A stretch of DNA of 64,000 bases from an uncultured bacterium (lineage in GTDB: Bacteria > Zixibacteria > MSB-5A5 > JAABVY01 > JAHJOQ01): the NCBI GenBank assembly GCA_965369655.1, contig CBDUQR010000004.1:7951-71950 (forward strand). Direction: 5' to 3'. Under the pieces are notes generated by a model. It worked only from the letters and a program-made list of their open reading frames with translations. It had not been told where the DNA came from and did no database searches. The position numbers were made by a program, and so were the translations under genes. Positions 4,158-20,338 of the stretch are shown here, piece by piece. Every line of letters starts with the position of its first letter. Position 1 is the stretch's first letter.

Positions 4158-5455
4158 AATCCGTATACATCGAGACATACGGCTGTCAGATGAATGAGTA
4201 TGACAGCGAAATCGTGAGATCGATTCTCTGCGAGAACGACTTCGAGATGACCGAAAACCCCGACACGGCATCGGTGATTCTTCTCAATACTTGCTCGGTC
4301 AGAGAGAATGCGCACAAGAAAGTCTTTCGCCGAATCGAGGCGCTGAAATATCTCAAGAGACAAAACGATCACCTGATCCTGGGTGTGATTGGCTGTATGG
4401 CGCAGAGCCTGAAAGAAGAGCTTCTCGAAGATGGTATCGGAGTTGATCTCATTGCCGGTCCCGATACATACAGGCGGCTGCCGAATCTCATAAGAGGCGT
4501 CGAGAGCACCGGACAGAAGGCAGCCGAGCTCAAGCTCTCCCGTACTGAGACGTATGCCGATGTGTTCCCTACGCAGGATCAGGGTGCCAATGCCTGGATA
4601 GCGGTGATGCGGGGCTGCGACAACGTCTGTACTTTCTGTATCGTGCCGTATACGCGGGGCCGGGAACGCAGCCGCGAACCGAAGGGTGTCATCGACGAGG
4701 CAAGACGGCTCGCCGATCAGGGATTCAGGCAGGTGACTCTGCTCGGTCAGAATGTCAACTCATACAAATATGACAACTGCGATTTCACCGACTTGATTAA
4801 CCTGGTCAGCGAGATCGACGGCATCAGTAGGATCAGGTTCACCTCGCCGCATCCGAAGGATTTCCCGACGAAACTGATTGAGGTTATCCGCGACAATCCC
4901 AAAGCCTGCAAGCATATTCACCTGCCGCTGCAAGCTGGGAACGACCGCATACTCGACATGATGAAACGCACTTATACAGGCGATGAGTTTATCAACCTTG
5001 CGGCCCTGATCCGCAGCGAAATCCCCGGTGTGGCGCTGACGACAGATATCATCGTCGGCTTTCCGACTGAGACCGAAGATGAGTTTCAGGACACGCTTCG
5101 CATTGTCGACGAAGTCAGGTTCGATTCAGCGTTCATGTTCAAATACTCGGAGAGAAAAGACACCGTCGCACAGAGGAAGTATCCGGACGATGTGTCAAAG
5201 AATGATAAGACATCGAGGATCACGCGGCTGGTTGATATGCAGCGGCGGATCTCGTTCGAGCGAAATCAGGCGCATCTTGACGCGATATTCGAGATTCTTG
5301 TCGAAGGCAGGGCGAAGAAACCGGATCAACTTTTCGGCAGAAACGATGGCAACAAGATCGTGGTCTTCCCCGACAATGGCGTCGAAGCGGGTGAGTTCCT
5401 GCGTGTAAGAATATACGAGGTGACTCCTAATACGCTAATCGGCAAAGTAACTTAG
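4154..5455 (+). CDS. miaB: tRNA-2-methylthio-N6-dimethylallyladenosine synthase MiaB
   Basis: MKSVYIETYGCQMNEYDSE (UPF0004/MTTase N-terminus), CDNVCTFCIVP radical SAM motif, C-terminal TRAM; ATGA overlap with the upstream paralog. Confidence 0.9.
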   Translation: MKSVYIETYGCQMNEYDSEIVRSILCENDFEMTENPDTASVILLNTCSVRENAHKKVFRRIEALKYLKRQNDHLILGVIGCMAQSLKEELLEDGIGVDLIAGPDTYRRLPNLIRGVESTGQKAAELKLSRTETYADVFPTQDQGANAWIAVMRGCDNVCTFCIVPYTRGRERSREPKGVIDEARRLADQGFRQVTLLGQNVNSYKYDNCDFTDLINLVSEIDGISRIRFTSPHPKDFPTKLIEVIRDNPKACKHIHLPLQAGNDRILDMMKRTYTGDEFINLAALIRSEIPGVALTTDIIVGFPTETEDEFQDTLRIVDEVRFDSAFMFKYSERKDTVAQRKYPDDVSKNDKTSRITRLVDMQRRISFERNQAHLDAIFEILVEGRAKKPDQLFGRNDGNKIVVFPDNGVEAGEFLRVRIYEVTPNTLIGKVT

Positions 5456-5470
5456 TCTTTAGCAGGTCAT

Positions 5471-5600
5471 GCCCACTTGCCCAATCCTGAGCTCAGCGAA
5501 GGGAGGCATGACATTCCGGAGTTTCTCACGTCCCCCTTCGACAGACTCAGGACTGGCAAGTGGACGTGAGCTACAAGGACTACAAGTCCAACTGGAACAT
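5471..5600. repeat. REP/BIME-like composite. An inverted pair of the cccttcg..ctcaggac module (5471-5502 reverse, 5537-5570 forward) forms a long hairpin, plus module ggcaagtggacgtgagctaca (5556-5600), also present at 47335-47375
   Basis: Reverse complement of cccacttgcccaatcctgagctcagcgaaggg matches cccttcgacagactcaggactggcaagtgg; the same motifs recur in other intergenic regions. Confidence 0.55.
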
Positions 5601-5799
5601 GGGGCAAGAAGGGCAAACCCCACTATCTTTTTTGTTGATTTTTTACTGGCGACCTGTTAAGTTCGAATTCAAATTTAAGCTGAAAGGCTGTGTAGAGAAA
5701 GGTTAGTACACAGGTTTCGGAGATAGAATAAGAAATGATAGACTGCGGGAGAAGTTATTCTCGGCGCGAGCCGGGAGATTTCTATTCTCTCGCCACACA

Positions 5800-7305
5800 A
5801 TGAAAGAGGAGGTGTGGGTTTTGCAGAATGGATTCAGAACAGCTACGATCCTGTTGATGGTCCTGGTCTTCACTATTCCCGCGTTTGCCGTTGAAAACAC
5901 TGGCAAGATCGGCTTTGGCGTACGTGGAGGCGGATTCATCAGCGGTGGTGAATGGAAACTCGGTCCAATGTTTGGTGCCGACCTGAAGTTCGGCATTCAC
6001 AAAAATTGGTCGATTGGTCTGACCGGAATGTACGGCCCGACCAAGGGCGGCATGCTGGAGATGGACAACAATAACGTGCAGATGATTGTCTCAACTGATG
6101 AAGATGCCGACAAACTTCGCATTCGTCATCATGTTGTAGAGATGGCGGGCTGGTTCAATATCACGCCCGATGCTGAGAAACTGAACTTGTACCTCATGGC
6201 CGGCGCCGGTATCGATACATGGCACACTGAATATGACGGTGGCGACAAAGTCTATGTCTTCGATACGAGCGGAGTCGAGTCTTTCCGGTACAGAGATCAG
6301 CAATTGGCGCTGGTGATTGGCGGTGGACTCGAATACTTCCTGATTGAGGAATTCTCGATCGGAGCAGGGCTACGCTATCACATATTGACCAATGCCCTGT
6401 CGCAGTTCAAGGACGAGAGAGATGTCGGCGATAATCTCGACAACCCGTCCGGACTTCTCGAAATCGGCGCTACTCTCACAGCCTATCTCGGCTCGTGCAA
6501 GGACAGCGACAAAGACGGCGTCTGCGATGAGGATGACAAGTGTCCCGAGACGCCGAAAGGATGTATCGTTGATGAGGCCGGTTGCCCACTCGACGGTGAC
6601 GGCGACGGTGTCTGCGACGGTCTCGACCAGTGCCCGGATACGCCACGCGGCTGCAAAGTCGACATGAACGGTTGCCTGATCGATTCGGACGGCGACGGCG
6701 TGTGTGACGGTATTGATAAGTGCCCCGACACTCCGACTATTGCGAAGGTCGACGCCGACGGCTGCCCGCTCGATACCGACAGAGACGGCGTACCAGATTA
6801 CCGGGATAAGTGCCCCGACACGCCATACGGCTGCAAGGTCGATGAAAACGGTTGCGAGATCGATTCCGATGGCGACGGCGTTTGCGACGGTCTCGACAAG
6901 TGCCCCGGCACACCGGCAGGTCTGAAGGTGGACAAAGATGGCTGCCCGGTCGATTTCATCATCGAGAAGGAACAGGTCCTCGAACCCATCATATTCGCCG
7001 TTAACTCTGCCAAGCTGACCAAACAGTCCAGGAGCACTATCGATGCGATGATCGAGAAGCTCAAGGCGATTTCGCACGTACGGATCGAGGTCCAGGGTCA
7101 CACTGACGTCAGCGGCACGCACAAGTGGAACATGGAACTTTCACAGATGCGCGCGCAGTCTGTCGTTGACTATATGGTTGAGAAGGGAATTGATGTGTCG
7201 CGGTTGGTCCCAAAGGGTTACGGCCCAGACAAGCCCAAGTACGACAACAAGGTCGCCGAAGGGCGCAGAAACAACCGCCGTGTAGAAGTCATTCGTTTGA
7301 ACTAA
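5800..7305 (+). CDS. OmpA-family outer-membrane protein with N-terminal beta-barrel-like region, five thrombospondin type-3 (Ca-binding) repeats and C-terminal OmpA peptidoglycan-binding domain
   Basis: Signal peptide (ILLMVLVFTIPAFA); repeated DKDGVCDxxDKCPDTP units; C-terminus ...ELSQMRAQSVVDYMVEKGID...GRRNNRRVEV. RBS aaagaggagg at 5803-5811 suggests the real start may be TTG at 5821. Confidence 0.85.
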   Translation: MKEEVWVLQNGFRTATILLMVLVFTIPAFAVENTGKIGFGVRGGGFISGGEWKLGPMFGADLKFGIHKNWSIGLTGMYGPTKGGMLEMDNNNVQMIVSTDEDADKLRIRHHVVEMAGWFNITPDAEKLNLYLMAGAGIDTWHTEYDGGDKVYVFDTSGVESFRYRDQQLALVIGGGLEYFLIEEFSIGAGLRYHILTNALSQFKDERDVGDNLDNPSGLLEIGATLTAYLGSCKDSDKDGVCDEDDKCPETPKGCIVDEAGCPLDGDGDGVCDGLDQCPDTPRGCKVDMNGCLIDSDGDGVCDGIDKCPDTPTIAKVDADGCPLDTDRDGVPDYRDKCPDTPYGCKVDENGCEIDSDGDGVCDGLDKCPGTPAGLKVDKDGCPVDFIIEKEQVLEPIIFAVNSAKLTKQSRSTIDAMIEKLKAISHVRIEVQGHTDVSGTHKWNMELSQMRAQSVVDYMVEKGIDVSRLVPKGYGPDKPKYDNKVAEGRRNNRRVEVIRLN

Positions 7306-9734: not shown

Positions 9735-10027
9735 CGTTTACTCCCGGTTATTATGTTAAAAAATCCGATGTGCAAAAATAGAGTTGTTGATTCGTTTGTC
9801 AAGCAGCTTTGGACGGTATTTGGATCGGACTGTCGAAATGTTTGCCGACAGCGGATGTGCTCAGCAGATCCCTGATCGACAGATGTAGACGACATTTCCA
9901 TTTGAGGCGATTTGCCACGCAAGACTGTTTGAAATTCTGGATTTGCAACGTGCTGCACTACAATATGTTAAGGCTAATATCCTCAAATTAAGTTGCGTTC
10001 AGGGTTTGTGTCGCGTACTATTTCTTC

Positions 10028-10516
10028 ATGTCTAAGTCTGTATGGGCGCCATGGAGAGAAGAATATATCCTCGGTTTCTCCAAAAAGAAAGTGGAGAAGG
10101 GATGCCTTTTCTGCAAGGCGATAAAGCAGAATCGTGACAGGGCGAACCTGATCCTGTGTCGCAATGAAAGCACTTTCGTGATGATGAACCGCTACCCTTA
10201 CACCTCGGGGCATCTGATGATTGTGCCGTACAGGCATGTCGGGACGCTTGAGAGGCTGAGCGACGAGATCGCGTGTGAACTCATGATGGAGACACGCAGG
10301 GCGGTGAAAATCCTGAAACAGGCTTTCAAACCTGACGGTTTGAATGTCGGGATCAATCTTGGCCGACCGGCGGGCGCCGGCGTTCCGGGGCATTTGCACG
10401 TACACATTGTTCCTCGGTGGACCGGGGACAACAGCTTCATGCCCGTCATAGGAGAGACGAGAGTCATTTCGGTTTCTCTCGAAACGACATTTAGGATTCT
10501 CAGTAAGCTTTTCTAA
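10028..10516 (+). CDS. HIT-family hydrolase
   Basis: Histidine-triad motif GHLHVHIVPRW near the C-terminus; 162 aa. Confidence 0.85.
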   Translation: MSKSVWAPWREEYILGFSKKKVEKGCLFCKAIKQNRDRANLILCRNESTFVMMNRYPYTSGHLMIVPYRHVGTLERLSDEIACELMMETRRAVKILKQAFKPDGLNVGINLGRPAGAGVPGHLHVHIVPRWTGDNSFMPVIGETRVISVSLETTFRILSKLF

Positions 10517-10527
10517 AGGCTGCACCT

Positions 10528-12057
10528 ATGAAAATGCCGACAAAAGGTGAACTCCTCCGACTCCAGGAGATGTATCACACCGACAAGCGCGTTGCCGAAG
10601 CTCTTGGCGGCAATGTCACTGAGCATCTTGTGCAGTACTGGCGGCGGAAAAAAGGCATACCGCGCAGGAAATTCCCCAAGTACTCAGAAGCGCAGATAAA
10701 GGAACTGTGGGAGCGTTACGGCGATGATTTCAGGTGCGGACGAGAGCTTGAACTCTCAAAGGCGGGATTCTACAGTTGGAGACGTCGCTACAATATAATG
10801 GACAAGCCGCATGCGTTAAGACTTGAACAGCTCGAACTGCGTTTTGGTGCGGAACCCAAACTTGGACGCGACGGAGTCTATGTCGAGTACTACAGGACCG
10901 TCGCCGAGAAAATCATGGCGAACTGTTCCGACAGCGATATTGTCGAGCGCAAACAGACTGTCGAACTGACGCCCGATCTGATACTGCTGGACCGACTGAG
11001 CGGAGAGGACCGACGCAAGCTGCGCATATCGAAATCGGTGGCCAATAGAGTCTGGCTTGCGACCGTTGATCGGGGCATCCTGTCGAACAGTCAACTGGAT
11101 ACTGGCAGGGTGCTGAACAATGTCTTCTCGCTTCTTCACCGCGAGGCTCTCTCGCCAAACATGCTGGTCGTGCGCAACAGTTGTTCAAGCGCTGGGTACT
11201 CGGCTTTCTCGACGCTTTCGATCGAGTTGAGGCAGGATCAACTGAACAAACTTCTGAAACGTGGCAAGTTCGAGTACACAGTACCGCCCGTGCTCAGGAT
11301 TACTCTTCAGGGAAGGCTCCAGCGCGGGGTCACGGCGTTTGACGTCTTCTGCTACGCCATATCAAATGTCTCCCAAAATGTTTTCGATGGCAGGATTGTC
11401 GAGTACGCAGGGAACGTGACCGAGAAGCTGAATATGTTCGAACGTTTCTCGCTGTGCCATCTTACTCCGGCCTCAGGCGCTGCCTGCGGGTACACTCTGT
11501 TCGATGAAACTACAAGAAAATACCTCGCCAGACGAGGCAGGTCCGACCACAAAGCGCTTTTCTCTGACTCGAAAGCATTTTATGACCGCGACTATGTCCT
11601 GATGGTTTCAGGATTGGCCCCGCAGATCATGAAGTCGGATGAGTTGAGATCGGGACAGCTTGTCAAGGATGCTGAGAATATCGGAGCAATCGATACGGTG
11701 TTCGTCGGGGGCCCCTGCGGGGGAGGGATCGAAGCGATGAAACAACTCGCCGATCTGCTCAAAGAACGCAGAGTACATTCATCGGTACGGATGTACATCT
11801 CCCCGCTGACTCAGGAGATTTACATCGAGGCGATCAAGAAACGCTACCTCGCTCCGATAGCGGAGGCGGGAGCGACAATTCTCCCGCCGGCTTCATCGCT
11901 GGAGGATATTCCAGGGTACACTCCGGGATCCGGGGCAGGCGTTCTCGCAACACCTTATCGATACGATGACAGCCATTCGCAGGACTGCTGGTATGTGAGC
12001 CATTTCACGGCAGCCGAGAGTGCTGTACAAGGCAAACTAAGCTGCGTCGGACGCTGA
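10528..12057 (+). CDS. aconitase-family large-subunit (LeuC type-2)-like protein; catalytic and Fe-S ligand motifs appear to be lost; ~90-aa HTH-like N-terminal extension
   Basis: Immediately upstream of a canonical LeuD type-2 gene. Segments align to LeuC type 2 (VFVGGPCGGGIE vs VFIGSCTNGRLE; ILPPASSLEDIPG vs VTNPSCSACMGSL; VVRNSCSSAGYSAF vs VVGADSHTCTHGAF), but two of three Cys ligands and the DSHT motif are substituted. Alignment is by eye and from memory. Confidence 0.55.
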   Translation: MKMPTKGELLRLQEMYHTDKRVAEALGGNVTEHLVQYWRRKKGIPRRKFPKYSEAQIKELWERYGDDFRCGRELELSKAGFYSWRRRYNIMDKPHALRLEQLELRFGAEPKLGRDGVYVEYYRTVAEKIMANCSDSDIVERKQTVELTPDLILLDRLSGEDRRKLRISKSVANRVWLATVDRGILSNSQLDTGRVLNNVFSLLHREALSPNMLVVRNSCSSAGYSAFSTLSIELRQDQLNKLLKRGKFEYTVPPVLRITLQGRLQRGVTAFDVFCYAISNVSQNVFDGRIVEYAGNVTEKLNMFERFSLCHLTPASGAACGYTLFDETTRKYLARRGRSDHKALFSDSKAFYDRDYVLMVSGLAPQIMKSDELRSGQLVKDAENIGAIDTVFVGGPCGGGIEAMKQLADLLKERRVHSSVRMYISPLTQEIYIEAIKKRYLAPIAEAGATILPPASSLEDIPGYTPGSGAGVLATPYRYDDSHSQDCWYVSHFTAAESAVQGKLSCVGR

Positions 12058-12157
12058 GACGATGGATGCGTCTTCATCGCCTGTTTCGACATTCATTCAG
12101 GTTGACAAAGGGCAAGGCTCGGACTACATTCTGTCGAACTGATCGAAAGGACTGCGA

Positions 12158-12655
12158 GTGGGCCTGATCAAAGGCAAGGTTTTCAAATACGGTGATGATA
12201 TTAACACCGATGTGATCTTTCCGGGCAAGTATACGTACACGGTAACTGAACCCGAGGATATGGCCAGCCACGCGATGGAGGATCTCGACCCCGGCTTTGT
12301 CGATGAAGTCGAAAATGGCGATGTTGTTGTCGGAGGCAAGAACTTCGGTTGTGGATCGTCACGCGAGCAGGCTGTGAAGTGCCTGAAATTCTCAGGCGTC
12401 GGAGCCGTTATTGCCAAGTCATTTTCGAGAATCTATTTTCGCAACCTGATCAACAACGGCATTCCGGCAATTGTTAACGCCGAGCTTGTCGATGTGCTCG
12501 AAAAGGGCGATCGAATCGAGGTCAATCTGGAGAGCGGTATGGTCAGCACGCCAAAGGGTGAATTCAGTTTTCCGGCGTATGCTCCGGAAATACAGGAGAT
12601 AATTGATTCCGGCGGACTCATCCCGTACACTCAGAAGAAACTCGGGATCGGGTAG
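12158..12655 (+). CDS. 3-isopropylmalate/homoaconitate dehydratase small subunit, LeuD type 2 (aconitase swivel domain)
   Basis: GDDINTDVIFPGKY, NFGCGSSREQAV, SFSRIYFRNLINNGIPAI: the classic LeuD type-2 signature; 165 aa. Confidence 0.8.
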   Translation: MGLIKGKVFKYGDDINTDVIFPGKYTYTVTEPEDMASHAMEDLDPGFVDEVENGDVVVGGKNFGCGSSREQAVKCLKFSGVGAVIAKSFSRIYFRNLINNGIPAIVNAELVDVLEKGDRIEVNLESGMVSTPKGEFSFPAYAPEIQEIIDSGGLIPYTQKKLGIG

Positions 12656-12779: not shown

Positions 12780-13118
12780 ATGAAAGTCAACGCCTACGAA
12801 AAAGACGGAGTTTCAATAATCGAGGTCAAGGGTCGACTCATGGGTGGACCCGACACCGGTGAACTCGACGAAAAGCTCTATGCAATTATTGGCAAGGGAG
12901 ACAAAAAGGCCATCGTTGATCTCGGCGGATGCGACTGGATCAATTCGTCCGGGCTTTCTATCCTGATCCATCATTACAAGAAATTCAAAGACGCCGGTGG
13001 CGAACTGAAGCTCGCCAACCTGACCAATAAGGTCGAGCGAATCATGGTGATCGCGAGACTGACCGAGGTCTTCGACGCGCGCGATTCTGTCGAGGACGCT
13101 ATCGCGGCGTTCGAGTAA
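12780..13118 (+). CDS. STAS-domain anti-sigma-factor antagonist (SpoIIAA-like)
   Basis: 112 aa; VSIIEVKGRLMGG...DLGGCDWINSSGLSILI, typical of STAS. Confidence 0.8.
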   Translation: MKVNAYEKDGVSIIEVKGRLMGGPDTGELDEKLYAIIGKGDKKAIVDLGGCDWINSSGLSILIHHYKKFKDAGGELKLANLTNKVERIMVIARLTEVFDARDSVEDAIAAFE

Positions 13119-13146: not shown

Positions 13147-13174
13147 GAGGCGGCTCATAGTAGCCGCCTTTTAC
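13147..13174 (+). terminator. rho-independent terminator after the STAS gene
   Basis: gaggcggct-catagt-agccgcct followed by tttt. Confidence 0.6.
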
Positions 13175-16657: not shown

Positions 16658-19600
16658 ATGTCAGAAACCAGTGATTTTTTACCTCCAAAGATACCATATG
16701 AGTTGAAGAAGGCTCAGCAGGACGGGAAATTAGTTGTATTCGTGGGGGCTGGCGTTTCCATGCCTCCGCCATCCAGTCTGCCGGACTTCAATGATCTCGC
16801 TAAGAAGCTCAAAGACAAATTAGGACCATCTTTCAAAAAGCGAGCGCGCAGTGAGTCGATTGATCAATTCATTGGCCGAATGGTAGACGAGAATCACGAC
16901 GTGCGGAAGTGGGTACGCGATATTTTCCTTAGTGAAAAATCAAAACCCAACAAACAACACGCCAATTTGATCAAGCTCTTTACTCAACCCAAGGATGTCA
17001 AGATCGTAACCACGAATTTTGATTCACATCTCTCAACAGCAGCGAGAGCTAAATTTGAGGATAGCAACGATATTAACGAATACCTGGCTCCTGCCTTGCC
17101 TCTGGGACGAGAGTTTTCAGGCATCGTTTATCTGCACGGACGTGCCGACCGAGGTGCGAATGAATTGGTGCTGACAGATCGAGATTTTGGAAAAGCCTAC
17201 TTGGCTGACGGCTGGGCGCGTCGATTCATGTTGGCTTTGTTCAGACATTACCATGTGCTTTTTGTTGGTTATAGTCACGAAGATTCTGTTCTGAGATATC
17301 TTGCCAGGGGATTGTTCGACAAGACTCAGCGATTTGCTTTTGCCACGGAAGCTAAAGAAGATCATTGGAAAAGACTGGGCATAAAGATAATTAAATACGA
17401 ACAAATCAAGAGAAAGAGAAAGTTCAAACTTGTCTGGGAAGCCATAAGCAGTTGGTCAAATCAGACACAATGGGGTCTACTGGATCACGAGAGAAGAATA
17501 ACCAATATTGTGTCCATAGTGGAGACAACAGATCCTATTTTATCGCCACATTCCAATCTTACTAAAGAAGATGCTCGGTATCTCATCGATGCCATCCAGC
17601 AAGAGCATCTGTTGCGTTTATTCTGCGACAAAGCAAAGCATACGTATTGGCTTGAATGGCTGGAGCAAAAGGAGAAGAACAAGGAGGCTGAGTATGACAC
17701 CAATGAGCAAGCTTGGAAAGAGCGACTCGAATTCTCAAAACTATTTAGTCCGACTGCTGAAATCGGAGAGCGAGAGCGTGTCCTTGCATGGTGGTTTGCC
17801 AAAAGCTTTGTCGGCTGCGACGATCAACAAGGGTTGATATATCTAACACAACGTGGCCAAACTGTCAATCCAGCATTATGGGACGAAATTGCAAGGGTAT
17901 TGGCTCACGGTAAGAAGCTCCCGAAACCGGAAACCTATGCCAAGTGGCTGTCAGTTCTTATGAACACTGTGCCTCAGCATAAGCATGCGTTAGATCGAAT
18001 CTTGACTAGTCGGAATTTGAACCAGAACTACTGGCGAGGCGTACTGAATCTGTTCCAGTTTCTGACTACTCCAAGATTGGAGCTGGAAGATGATTATATG
18101 GGTGAACTAATCAAAGGAGAGAAGAAAGTTAACGCGAATATATCAATGTTAGGTGATAAGTACTGCTTGGATGAGGCTTGGAAACGAATATTGAAACCAC
18201 TGCTCCCGACACTGTCAAGCGAACTGGCGGTCACATTCACAGGCCACTTCTGGCGTGCGCATTCGTTGTTGGTCGCCGCTGGCAAGGCTGGTCCCATGTG
18301 GAATCCGGTTAGTTTCAGTCGCTCGGCTATCGAGCCGCATGAACAAGATAGCCAGATGTTCGGATTCGAGCTCATTATCGACTATGCAAGAGATGTAATC
18401 GAATTCATTATCGAGAATGACACAAGACAGGCTGATGCCCTCATACAAATATGGATATCTTCGAAAGTTCCTATACTCGCTCGTCTCGCTGTTCACGCCA
18501 TGAGAAAGTCAATCCACGTTTCCTTCGACGACAAGCTACGCTGGGTACTTGAATGGGAGCTGATCTACAAGCATCTCACCAAACATGAGGTCTTCATGCT
18601 CTTAGAGCATGCTTTCCCCAAGGCAGGGCAAGACATGCAATTAGAGGTAATCGAGCGCGCCAAGATCGGACCTCATCGCGATGAAGGTGAAGATACAGAA
18701 CATGCGAAACTATATGAGTATGAGATATACTGTCTACTATATTGGCTTAAGAAGCATGCTCCGAAACTCCACTCTGCACAGCAAGCATTTGATGAGGTAC
18801 AGAGTAGGAATAAAGAATTCTCACCACCTGATCATCCTGAATTCTATAAGTGGAGTTCGGGTGCTATTTTAATTGAAGGCTTCTCTCCGATTGATGCTGA
18901 CGAACTCTTATTGAAACCTGCTGCAGAGCAGGTTGAATATTTGATGAACGGTGGATCTGAGTCCAGGCATATTTTCGAGAGAGAAGGTCTCATGGGGCAA
19001 GTTGGCATCGCGGCAAGAAAAAACCCGTCGTGGGGTTTAGACCTTGCAGAGGTGTTGAGGGATAGGACGGAATGGAAAGAAGATATTTGGAGCAGCATTC
19101 TTAATGCATGGCATAAACCACCTTTCAACAAAGAAGATTGGCCGCGAGCACTAGGAATCCTCGGGGACGTAAACATTCTCTCTAATAACCGATACACGAT
19201 AGGTTACATCCTCTGGCATGCGTCCGAAATGAAAAACATCTGGACTGAAGCGACTCTCCACGAAGCCGAGGCTATTACGGAGAGATTTTGGGATATTATC
19301 GGCAATGACGCACCAGAACGGACACCTGCTGACGACTGGCTGTTCGAGGCTATCAACCATCCGGCTGGTCAGCTTACTCTCTTCTGGCTGCACCTTATCG
19401 AAAGGCGCGCCGAACTCGCTGGACACGATCCTGACACAATACCCGACAAGTACAAAGAGCGTTTTGAAGCAATCATCTCAGGGACATCATACGCGAGTCA
19501 ACTTGGCCGTGTAACCCTCGCCAGCCAGATCAGATATGCATTCAGCCTAGATCGGCAATGGACAGTAGATAACCTGCTTCCGCTACTAGACTGGAATAAG

Positions 19601-20338
19601 GACGAACATCGTGCAGAGCAATGCTGGCACGGATTCATCGGCTGGGGAACACCGCCTTTCGAGTTACTGAAACACCTTAAGCCGCTGTATGAGCAAGCCA
19701 CCGAGAAGTTTCCTCCTGAGGCTTCCAGACTACGTGAGCATCTAATGCAACACTTGGCCTTCATGGCGCTTTCTCTTGAGAATCCGCTTCAGGACAAATG
19801 GTTGCTTCGAGTGAGAAGCCATATGATTCAGGAAGGCGATCTGCTAAAGTGGACTCACAGATTCAGATTCGTATTGATCGACATCCCTGACAACCAGAAG
19901 AAAGCAATATGGGATAGGTGGCTCTGTCAGTATTGGAAGGATCGTACAGAAGGTATATTCGGACGATTCGTTGAAGAGGAAGCCGCAGGAATGCTCAGTT
20001 GGGCACTCGAGCTTGGTCCTGTAATTGGAGAAGTTGTCAATGTTATTTGTAATTCTGATCCTGTAGATGTAGGTAGTACTTCTATTTACATCGAATTGGT
20101 CGAGAGTAGACTTGCAGAGAAGTACCCGGATCCCACAGCCGATCTTCTTCATCATCTTGCCAAGGGGCACAAGCATCCTCTTCCTGCGCAGGAATCCTAC
20201 ATGTGCCACGAGATGTCGGAACTTGTGAAAGAGCTTCATAAGCACGGCGCGTCAATTGATAAGCTCAAAGCAATTTGCGAAGAACTCGCAAAACTTGGAT
20301 GCACAGAAGCCCCTGATCCACATGATTCCCTAAAGTAG
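16658..20338 (+). CDS. SIR2-domain protein, 1226 aa: candidate defense-associated sirtuin (DSR-like NADase with large helical C-terminal region)
   Basis: N-terminus LVVFVGAGVSMPPP, TTNFDSHL, GIVYLHGRAD (SIR2-like Rossmann, Asn and His context). ~900-aa Trp-rich helical remainder, AT-richer than flanks. Hairpin terminator at 20343-20370. Confidence 0.7.
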   Translation: MSETSDFLPPKIPYELKKAQQDGKLVVFVGAGVSMPPPSSLPDFNDLAKKLKDKLGPSFKKRARSESIDQFIGRMVDENHDVRKWVRDIFLSEKSKPNKQHANLIKLFTQPKDVKIVTTNFDSHLSTAARAKFEDSNDINEYLAPALPLGREFSGIVYLHGRADRGANELVLTDRDFGKAYLADGWARRFMLALFRHYHVLFVGYSHEDSVLRYLARGLFDKTQRFAFATEAKEDHWKRLGIKIIKYEQIKRKRKFKLVWEAISSWSNQTQWGLLDHERRITNIVSIVETTDPILSPHSNLTKEDARYLIDAIQQEHLLRLFCDKAKHTYWLEWLEQKEKNKEAEYDTNEQAWKERLEFSKLFSPTAEIGERERVLAWWFAKSFVGCDDQQGLIYLTQRGQTVNPALWDEIARVLAHGKKLPKPETYAKWLSVLMNTVPQHKHALDRILTSRNLNQNYWRGVLNLFQFLTTPRLELEDDYMGELIKGEKKVNANISMLGDKYCLDEAWKRILKPLLPTLSSELAVTFTGHFWRAHSLLVAAGKAGPMWNPVSFSRSAIEPHEQDSQMFGFELIIDYARDVIEFIIENDTRQADALIQIWISSKVPILARLAVHAMRKSIHVSFDDKLRWVLEWELIYKHLTKHEVFMLLEHAFPKAGQDMQLEVIERAKIGPHRDEGEDTEHAKLYEYEIYCLLYWLKKHAPKLHSAQQAFDEVQSRNKEFSPPDHPEFYKWSSGAILIEGFSPIDADELLLKPAAEQVEYLMNGGSESRHIFEREGLMGQVGIAARKNPSWGLDLAEVLRDRTEWKEDIWSSILNAWHKPPFNKEDWPRALGILGDVNILSNNRYTIGYILWHASEMKNIWTEATLHEAEAITERFWDIIGNDAPERTPADDWLFEAINHPAGQLTLFWLHLIERRAELAGHDPDTIPDKYKERFEAIISGTSYASQLGRVTLASQIRYAFSLDRQWTVDNLLPLLDWNKDEHRAEQCWHGFIGWGTPPFELLKHLKPLYEQATEKFPPEASRLREHLMQHLAFMALSLENPLQDKWLLRVRSHMIQEGDLLKWTHRFRFVLIDIPDNQKKAIWDRWLCQYWKDRTEGIFGRFVEEEAAGMLSWALELGPVIGEVVNVICNSDPVDVGSTSIYIELVESRLAEKYPDPTADLLHHLAKGHKHPLPAQESYMCHEMSELVKELHKHGASIDKLKAICEELAKLGCTEAPDPHDSLK

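Follow-up and report, generated by a model that had tools for sequence, protein, structure and literature searches.

The 64-kb window analysed here (contig CBDUQR010000004.1 of assembly GCA_965369655.1, from an uncultured bacterium of the Zixibacteria) carries between positions 10028 and 12655 three genes, all on the forward strand, which encode in this order a protein of the histidine triad (HIT) family, a LeuC-like protein and a LeuD small subunit. The second gene, at 10528-12057 (+) with its stop codon included, is the subject of this study; its 509-residue product, annotated in public databases as 'homoaconitase/3-isopropylmalate dehydratase large subunit', is a catalytically dead LeuC-like protein fused to an N-terminal head with helix-turn-helix (HTH) units. 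The HIT gene (10028-10516, +) encodes a protein of 162 residues, of the diadenosine tetraphosphate (Ap4A) phosphorylase type and with an intact triad, HLHVHIVPR; it stops 11 nt before the LeuC-like gene, and not 12 nt as counted in the initial annotation of this stretch. The leuD gene (12158-12655, +) starts with GTG and encodes 165 residues. In the 100-nt spacer that precedes it no terminator-like site was found, and a promoter-like site, TTGACA-17-TACATT, lies at 12102-12130 (+), a consensus match only, at 10 of 12 positions. G+C content is about 51% over the window, without a break in composition around these genes, and the window contains no other leuC or leuD. The two open reading frames downstream of the HIT gene, and every peptide quoted from them in the initial annotation, were located as described.

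The large subunit had been presented as a member of the aconitase family which is catalytically degenerate, and a profile alignment had been proposed as a check. When we ran it, the protein passed the Pfam Aconitase model PF00330 (97.8 bits for a cut-off of 28.7) and remained below the cut-offs of all the LeuC/HacA models. The best NCBIfam score was obtained with NF001614 (143 bits for a cut-off of 385); TIGR01343, TIGR02086 and TIGR02083 gave 122, 122 and 106 bits for cut-offs of 386, 410 and 611, respectively. The curated LeuC, HacA and aconitase models cover only residues ~204-504 of the protein. The register read by eye in the initial annotation, with SCSS facing DSHT and ASSLE facing the SCxxC pair, was reproduced by HMMER alignments to the M. 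jannaschii large subunits 4kp2 and 4nqy, where SCSS stands opposite DSHT and 'pass--ledip' opposite 'pscsacmgsl'.

To describe the active site, 13 ligand and catalytic positions were scored in a MAFFT alignment which, besides the window protein, contained 88 relatives and 8 canonical LeuC. We observed that the window protein retains only two of them, the Glu of the 'vEYxG' motif and one Arg, the 11 others being lost. None of the three cysteine ligands of the [4Fe-4S] cluster (GxCTxxR, CGxC) is present in the aligned columns, and ASS-LE replaces the CGxC pair. The lone cysteine thought to remain from the cluster site is indeed present, in GGPCGGG, but it is one residue off the first ligand column and is thus not a strictly retained ligand. 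LLDRL is found in place of MxHDx, SCS in place of DSH and YRY-DD in place of RNFKGR, while the GICH segment is deleted.

The three-domain body of aconitase/LeuC type spans residues 122-509 (10891-12054, +). The AlphaFold2 (AF2) model of the whole protein, built on 56 family sequences, has a mean predicted local distance difference test score (pLDDT) of 87.8. Its best Foldseek matches are the large subunits MJ0499 and MJ1003 (4kp1, 4nqy, 4kp2), with E-values of 4e-30 to 1e-28 and target-normalised template modelling (TM) scores of 0.78-0.83 at 18-19% identity. The iron regulatory proteins IRP1 and IRP2 match residues 250-344 only, and weakly (E 3e-4 to 2e-3). The window protein has thus undergone a complete loss of the Fe-S enzyme site with preservation of the fold; by descent and by fold it is a LeuC, and functionally it does not qualify as one.

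The first ~105 residues form two homologous three-helix HTH units, with a pLDDT of 89 for this head and an isoelectric point of 9.9. Unit 1 spans residues 5-45 (10540-10662, +), with helices at 6-16, 19-26 and 32-41, and its sequence ends with LVQYWRRKKGIP; unit 2 spans residues 52-92 (10681-10803, +), with helices at 54-64, 67-73 and 78-87, and ends with FYSWRRRYNI. Both were delimited on AF2 models, and the alignment of unit 1 with unit 2 by hhalign gave a probability of 83% and an E-value of 9.5e-6. A conserved helix, LRLEQLELRF, and a low-confidence linker or hairpin follow (residues 93-121; 10804-10890, +) and join the head to the enzyme-derived body; pLDDT falls below 50 at residues 99-104 and is 48-62 over residues 101-120. 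The head occurs in all of the 56 full-length relatives aligned. Of the 25 invariant columns of this alignment, 19 lie between residues 34 and 101, and the motif LKLEQLEL is nearly invariant; the head is the region of the protein with the strongest conservation. The basic, HTH-like extension noticed in the initial annotation is therefore genuine. A mis-called start, which had been considered as a possible explanation, is ruled out by the conservation of the MKMPTK N-terminus and of the entire head in every full-length relative.

A search of 1.84 billion representative proteins with the head profile gave 393 matches. Beyond the LeuC-like family, many of them are proteins in which a unit of ~45 residues, with the pattern ...LxxLQxxYxTDxxIAExLGVSxxTVxxWRxKxGIP, is repeated 3-8 times in tandem, and such proteins match with E-values down to 1e-40. 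The tandem-repeat proteins pass HTH_23 (PF13384; E 1e-15 to 1e-60), four of the eight tested pass NF046037 'carph-isopro', and two have sub-threshold scores on the model of the CRISPR-repeat-binding protein Cbp1. In addition, one intact member of the LeuC-like family has a precomputed PF13384 match. Taken together, these sequence comparisons and models show that the head is a tandem HTH module of the DNA-binding type, and DNA binding would be its expected activity.

The tandem-repeat proteins include P0223, P0228, P0234, P0236, P0243 and P0253, of which P0243 is an archaeal TFB with eight appended repeats. The repeat also weakly matches residues ~478-522 of CarB, and Foldseek matches were obtained with 1c30 and 1jdb. 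On the basis of these matches, our guess is that 'carph-isopro' may owe its name to proteins that had been called after carbamoyl-phosphate synthase or isopropylmalate enzymes.

We also examined how far the protein is distributed. From 5.8 billion proteins, a search recovered ~58 relatives of nearly full length (467-543 residues), and nearly all those with source names are labelled Zixibacteria. When one genome per GTDB species was scanned, at least 159 species genomes were found to encode a relative, again nearly all Zixibacteria; the 80 loci listed among these each come from a different isolate, and the family is apparently single-copy. For neighbourhood counts 88 loci were used. Site counts were made over 85 non-duplicate relatives carrying the family motifs, of which 6 are intact and 79 degenerate; the gene is a single open frame in all of these loci but one (L084).

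The six intact loci (L070, L088, L055, L040, L080 and L074) encode proteins with the same HTH head and with all 13 sites. They score 463-508 bits on the canonical LeuC profile, whereas the group of the window protein scores 104-156 bits; on NF001614 the intact clade reaches 592-601 bits (cut-off 385) over the full length of the model. A further protein search showed this to be a large clade, whose members share in the catalytic domain 69-72% identity with the unfused LeuC, of 414 residues, from KSB1 and other bacteria of the FCB group, and because of this identity the intact HTH-LeuC is probably the working LeuC of the organism. The LeuD encoded beside it is intact too, and the gene order is HIT, HTH-LeuC, LeuD. 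Some database entries of intact HTH-LeuC start internally and lack the head, as seen for P0362 (425 residues) when compared with P0476 (508 residues), two entries which fall in one 90% cluster; the HTH fusion is thus under-reported in public annotation.

The 79 degenerate members retain from 1 to 9 of the 13 sites, different lineages keeping different sites, and none of them keeps all 13. The Glu of 'vEYxG' is kept in 78 of the 79, each other position in only 5-48, and many different replacements are found at the lost sites. In the group of the window protein, where the GICH segment is deleted as well, the former DSH region reads VRNSCSSA, VRDNCTSA, AQNECIAG, LRNSAESA, LYAGTNAG or FHSGCEAG; judging from such variation, selection does not act on these positions. 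The head has a mean pairwise identity of 77-78% in each of the three groups, while for the body the mean is 82% within the intact clade, 44% within a middle group and 34% within the group of the window protein. In a neighbour-joining tree the intact HTH-LeuC proteins join the unfused LeuC and the degenerate forms make up one long-branched clade, a topology compatible with a single loss of catalysis followed by drift, although it may be affected by long-branch artefacts.

Six of the eroded members (L025, L028, L030, L031, L034 and L046; genes at ~5000-6600 of their loci) keep all three cysteines and lack the DSH triad or the RNFxGR loop. These proteins could bind a cluster without catalysis, and they would then be candidate redox or iron sensors.

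The HIT gene, on which the initial annotation touched only briefly, is the constant partner of the family. In each of the 88 family loci it is the gene directly upstream, in the same orientation. The ends of both genes could be assigned in 77 loci; the HIT stop and the following start overlap by 4 nt in 38 of these, and the two genes lie within 37 nt of each other in 74. The flanking genes otherwise vary between lineages. The HIT protein of the window scores 59 bits on the Pfam HIT model. Its closest solved relative is the Ap4A phosphorylase of M. tuberculosis, Rv2613c (PDB 3ano; 127 bits, E 5e-36, residues 4-159), which it resembles over its whole length with the histidine triad kept (HLHVHIV); it differs in that it does not reach the equivalog cut-off of the NCBIfam model 'ATP adenylyltransferase' (155 bits for a cut-off of 290). 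Neither an upstream HIT gene nor an adjoining leuD accompanies the closest unfused leuC genes. The linkage to HIT thus goes together with the HTH fusion, and an origin of the HIT adjacency as inherited leuC synteny is ruled out. To our knowledge, a fixed pairing of genes of the Rv2613c type with a LeuC-type gene has not been previously described. In view of the predicted co-transcription and of the usual translational coupling, the HIT protein and the HTH-LeuC-like protein probably act together.

A weak promoter-like pair, TTGCGT-17 nt-TACTAT, lies within 9993-10027 and ends ~6 nt before the ATG of the HIT gene. Because it stands so close to this start codon, the HIT mRNA may be leaderless or nearly so.

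The LeuD of the window was claimed to be an intact type-2 small subunit, and our analysis agrees. The protein passes TIGR02087 (179 bits for a cut-off of 109), and the motifs GDDINTD, GCGSSREQA, YGDDINTDVIFPG and SFSRIYFRN align with those of canonical LeuD; the equivalog TIGR02084 'leud' is not reached (170 bits for a cut-off of 246). The idea that the large subunit still docks a swivel-domain partner does not hold for the family as a whole, since most loci have no LeuD-like neighbour. Among the 73 loci with enough sequence, a LeuD-like frame is directly downstream in only ~14, which rules out LeuD as an obligate partner across the family. Five more loci have one a few kb upstream on the other strand, which brings the neighbourhood total to ~19 of 73.

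Orthologues of the LeuD of the window directly follow a dead LeuC only in the sub-clade of the window, where this order is found in all members with enough sequence. Within this sub-clade the LeuD proteins are 83-86% identical where the large proteins are only 51-59% identical. The LeuD of the window shares 60-70% identity with its counterparts in Acidobacteria, Planctomycetota, Marinimicrobia, KSB1 and others, and only 44-47% with the LeuD that partners intact HTH-LeuC. In a metagenome scan, its relatives at 83-85% identity follow HIT and a dead HTH-LeuC on contigs that are long enough, those at 63-77% are stand-alone genes where flanks suffice (the Zixibacterial ones at 69-77%), and many of those at 65% or less directly follow canonical leuC genes. 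From the contexts of these orthologues, the identity across phyla and the promoter-like site, the simplest reading is that this protein would be a working LeuD whose catalytic partner is encoded elsewhere.

Type-2 leuC and leuD genes often stand alone in the Zixibacteria and the FCB group, as in L089 (7001-7498), L090 (7001-7501), L091 (5001-6245) and L092 (5001-6251), so that in these lineages adjacency is a poor guide to the pairing of subunits. Degenerate LeuD-like frames were also seen beside or near the HTH-LeuC-like gene (L051, L030, L057, L064, L078, L053, L083, L006 and L068). In these, GCGSSRE is replaced (by GCGVPRM, GGGADCG, GLGDDAE or GEGEDPE) or the first ~50-75 positions of the model are unmatched. 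By these sequences, both subunits seem to have become pseudoenzymes together in some lineages.

The reading that we favour, with a probability of about 0.6, is that of a bifunctional enzyme which became a pseudoenzyme and was retained for DNA binding through its HTH head; the lost catalytic site, the conserved fold and head, the intact sister clade and the HIT linkage are observed, and DNA binding, a regulatory role and contacts with HIT or LeuD are the parts of it that we infer. The window protein is the Zixibacterial orthologue of type-2 LeuC with a bipartite HTH carried on a flexible linker. Its ancestor would have been both a working Fe-S enzyme, together with LeuD, and an HTH protein, a state that would persist in one Zixibacterial lineage. 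In the lineage of the window, the cluster cysteines and the acid/base and substrate-binding residues were lost and left to drift freely, the fold, the reading frame and above all the HTH head staying under purifying selection. Since the active site drifts while fold, frame and head are conserved, the selected function would be non-catalytic, most likely the recognition of specific DNA sequences by the pair of HTH units, as paired-type or Cbp1-type tandem HTH modules do. The dead body may then serve as a scaffold, as an oligomerisation or dimerisation platform, or as a platform for binding a partner or a ligand, and the gene would be co-transcribed, and usually translationally coupled, with that of the HIT protein. 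The regulatory or moonlighting role put forward in the initial annotation is thus the most reasonable one, given the dead site and the genuine HTH head. The analogy it drew with IRP proteins, in which the opened enzyme body binds RNA, finds no support here, the candidate binder being the added head.

Several observations weigh against this reading. The HTH units of the window protein stay below the thresholds of Pfam and NCBIfam, at 13-22 bits: unit 1 has weak matches to HTH_23 (13 bits for a cut-off of 24.6) and 'carph-isopro' (21.5 for 38), and unit 2 a weak match to HTH_Tnp_1. Foldseek searches with the head gave no significant match in the PDB (best E 0.13); the best of these non-significant matches are with Mos1, SETMAR and Tc3, through their bipartite HTH DNA-binding domains, and with Cbp1. 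No operator was detected when k-mers (k = 6-8) were counted in the 200 nt that precede the HIT gene of 65 non-redundant loci, where the only enriched words are AT-rich, TATAAT-like and promoter-like. When the upstream regions of the window sub-clade are aligned, one short block, (G/T)GTTT..GT(T/C)(G/A)C(G/A/C)T, is conserved close to the HIT start, where the weak promoter-like pair also lies; it looks like a promoter element and could not be distinguished from an operator. Moreover, no residues conserved specifically in the dead body mark a ligand site in the alignment of 56 relatives, its conserved columns being those also conserved in canonical LeuC, and a single-clade origin for the degenerate forms depends on a neighbour-joining tree whose branches are very long.

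Other explanations have to be weighed against the same data. The dead large subunit and the adjacent intact LeuD could form a regulatory heterodimer, sensing for instance an intermediate of the leucine pathway through the substrate loop of the small subunit. The order HIT, LeuC-like, LeuD is the same as in the intact clade, the downstream LeuD is present in every member of the window sub-clade with enough sequence, and the persistence of degenerate LeuD-like genes near degenerate LeuC-like ones suggests that the pair may survive without catalysis. However, most family members have no such neighbour (~14 of 73 directly downstream, ~19 nearby), and the LeuD of the window keeps every catalytic motif and is better conserved than the protein encoded next to it. 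It is also closer to LeuD of other phyla than to that of intact HTH-LeuC, its orthologues follow canonical leuC genes or stand alone, and a promoter-like site precedes it, all of which makes us doubt such a heterodimer. Still less probable to us is a head that does not bind DNA and makes protein or RNA contacts, in a protein that would be a regulatory or scaffold subunit of the HIT Ap4A phosphorylase, its dead body perhaps binding nucleotides or the HIT dimer. The HIT linkage is absolute and usually comes with translational coupling, as is typical of co-assembling proteins, and both the missing operator motif upstream of HIT and the lack of a significant structural match for the head fit with it. 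But the unit is homologous to HTH_23-type tandem arrays, of which one is joined to an archaeal TFB transcription factor; the head is also strongly basic, and nothing ties the aconitase fold to nucleotide binding.

That the gene is a decaying leuC pseudogene, functionless and kept only through its overlap or co-transcription with HIT, would agree with active-site positions which evolve almost freely and with a body only 34-44% identical in the degenerate groups. We consider it very improbable, for full-length frames persist across a radiation of phylum level, the fold is predicted confidently from the family alignment, the head is 77-78% identical with 19 invariant positions, and a 4-nt overlap with HIT could not preserve 1.5 kb of coding sequence. 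We give equally little credit to a protein that is still an enzyme and carries out, together with LeuD, a cluster-independent chemistry on a new substrate: although the fold, the Glu of 'vEYxG' and the intact catalytic loop of LeuD are present, the lost residues are not made good by another conserved set of polar ones, the former active-site positions vary even among proteins that share 51-82% identity with that of the window, the GICH segment is deleted, and all the NCBIfam enzyme models score far below their cut-offs.

With MJ0499 (isopropylmalate isomerase), MJ1003 (homoaconitase) and the type-2 LeuC/HacA proteins described by NF001614 and TIGR02086, the window protein shares the three-domain alpha/beta/alpha fold and the separation from the swivel-domain small subunit, which is another polypeptide. 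Its descent from them is clear through the intact HTH-LeuC proteins and their identity to unfused LeuC. It differs from them by the absence of Fe-S ligands, of the DSH triad and of RNFxGR, by the added double HTH head of 105 residues and, at the level of the family, by the HIT gene that always precedes.

Aconitase-family proteins that also bind nucleic acid are known: IRP1 and IRP2, CitB of B. subtilis and Aco1 of yeast. In these proteins domain 4 is fused and the enzyme body, once it has lost the cluster, binds RNA or, for Aco1, mitochondrial DNA; IRP2 is a permanently inactive paralogue. The idea in common is that of an aconitase-superfamily protein with a non-catalytic role on nucleic acid, a role which is presumed for the window protein. 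The window protein differs in that the candidate binder is an added HTH head, in that domain 4 is encoded by a separate gene, so that it is not a four-domain single chain of the IRP type, and in that the catalytic loss is fixed in the sequence. The overall interpretation of the initial annotation stands for the dead enzyme, for the HTH head and, as the most plausible reading, for the regulatory role, and falls for swivel docking across the family and for the comparison with IRP.

A DNA-binding domain is joined to an enzyme or enzyme-derived domain in PutA, BirA and NadR, in the MocR/GabR proteins (aminotransferase fold), in the ROK proteins (sugar-kinase fold) and in SorC/CggR, and among such trigger enzymes and enzyme-derived HTH regulators active and inactive forms occur within one family. 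The window family is alike, with an HTH head on an enzyme-derived body and with active and inactive forms; its head differs, being a tandem pair of the HTH_23 type and not a winged HTH, a ribbon-helix-helix or a GntR domain. Its three-helix unit of ~45 residues, which ends W-R-R-K-x-G-I, and the tandem use of this unit are shared with the 'carph-isopro' and HTH_23 proteins, with Sulfolobus Cbp1 and with mariner/Tc3; these are repeat arrays or transposases without an enzyme-like body, unlike the window protein. In our literature search we found no description of an aconitase- or LeuC-derived HTH regulator, nor of HTH-fused LeuC or its dead derivatives.

Further along the window, leuD is followed by a gene for a STAS-domain protein, anti-sigma-antagonist-like (12780-13118, +), and then by a strong terminator-like hairpin (13147-13170). 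The same STAS gene was seen downstream of leuD in two other loci (L001 and L002). At 16658-20338 (+) a protein of 1226 residues combines a SIR2-like domain (PF13289, 66 bits) with DUF4020. The G+C content of this stretch is 0.467-0.477, against 0.51-0.55 on either side, and the gene may be a putative anti-phage defence gene on a small island.

The protein studied here is an enzyme-derived HTH protein on an aconitase/LeuC fold whose intact bifunctional form is still extant. With an intact HTH-LeuC in a sister lineage, what looked like a mere oddity among pseudoenzymes is better seen as a bifunctional enzyme which has lost its enzyme half. One orthologous family spans the working enzyme with its head, partly eroded forms and a fully dead scaffold, a natural series in which the way from a moonlighting enzyme to a pseudoenzyme can be tested directly. 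If the favoured reading is true, the aconitase/LeuC fold would join the enzyme folds recruited as bodies of HTH regulators. As a more tentative proposal, HTH-LeuC could be an unrecognised trigger enzyme of the Zixibacteria, a Fe-S isomerase that binds DNA directly through its paired HTH head and works with HIT. In most of the phylum it would have become a dedicated transcription factor without catalysis, which might respond to nucleotides or to Fe-S status. It would then be the first DNA-binding regulator on an aconitase fold, with a living intermediate, an active enzyme with HTH, available. The invariant coupling with HIT hints at a link between dinucleotide-polyphosphate metabolism and the HTH-LeuC-like protein. 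Finally, public annotations give the dead proteins the name 'homoaconitase/3-isopropylmalate dehydratase large subunit', so that this step of leucine biosynthesis may be wrongly attributed to many Zixibacteria when their metabolism is reconstructed.

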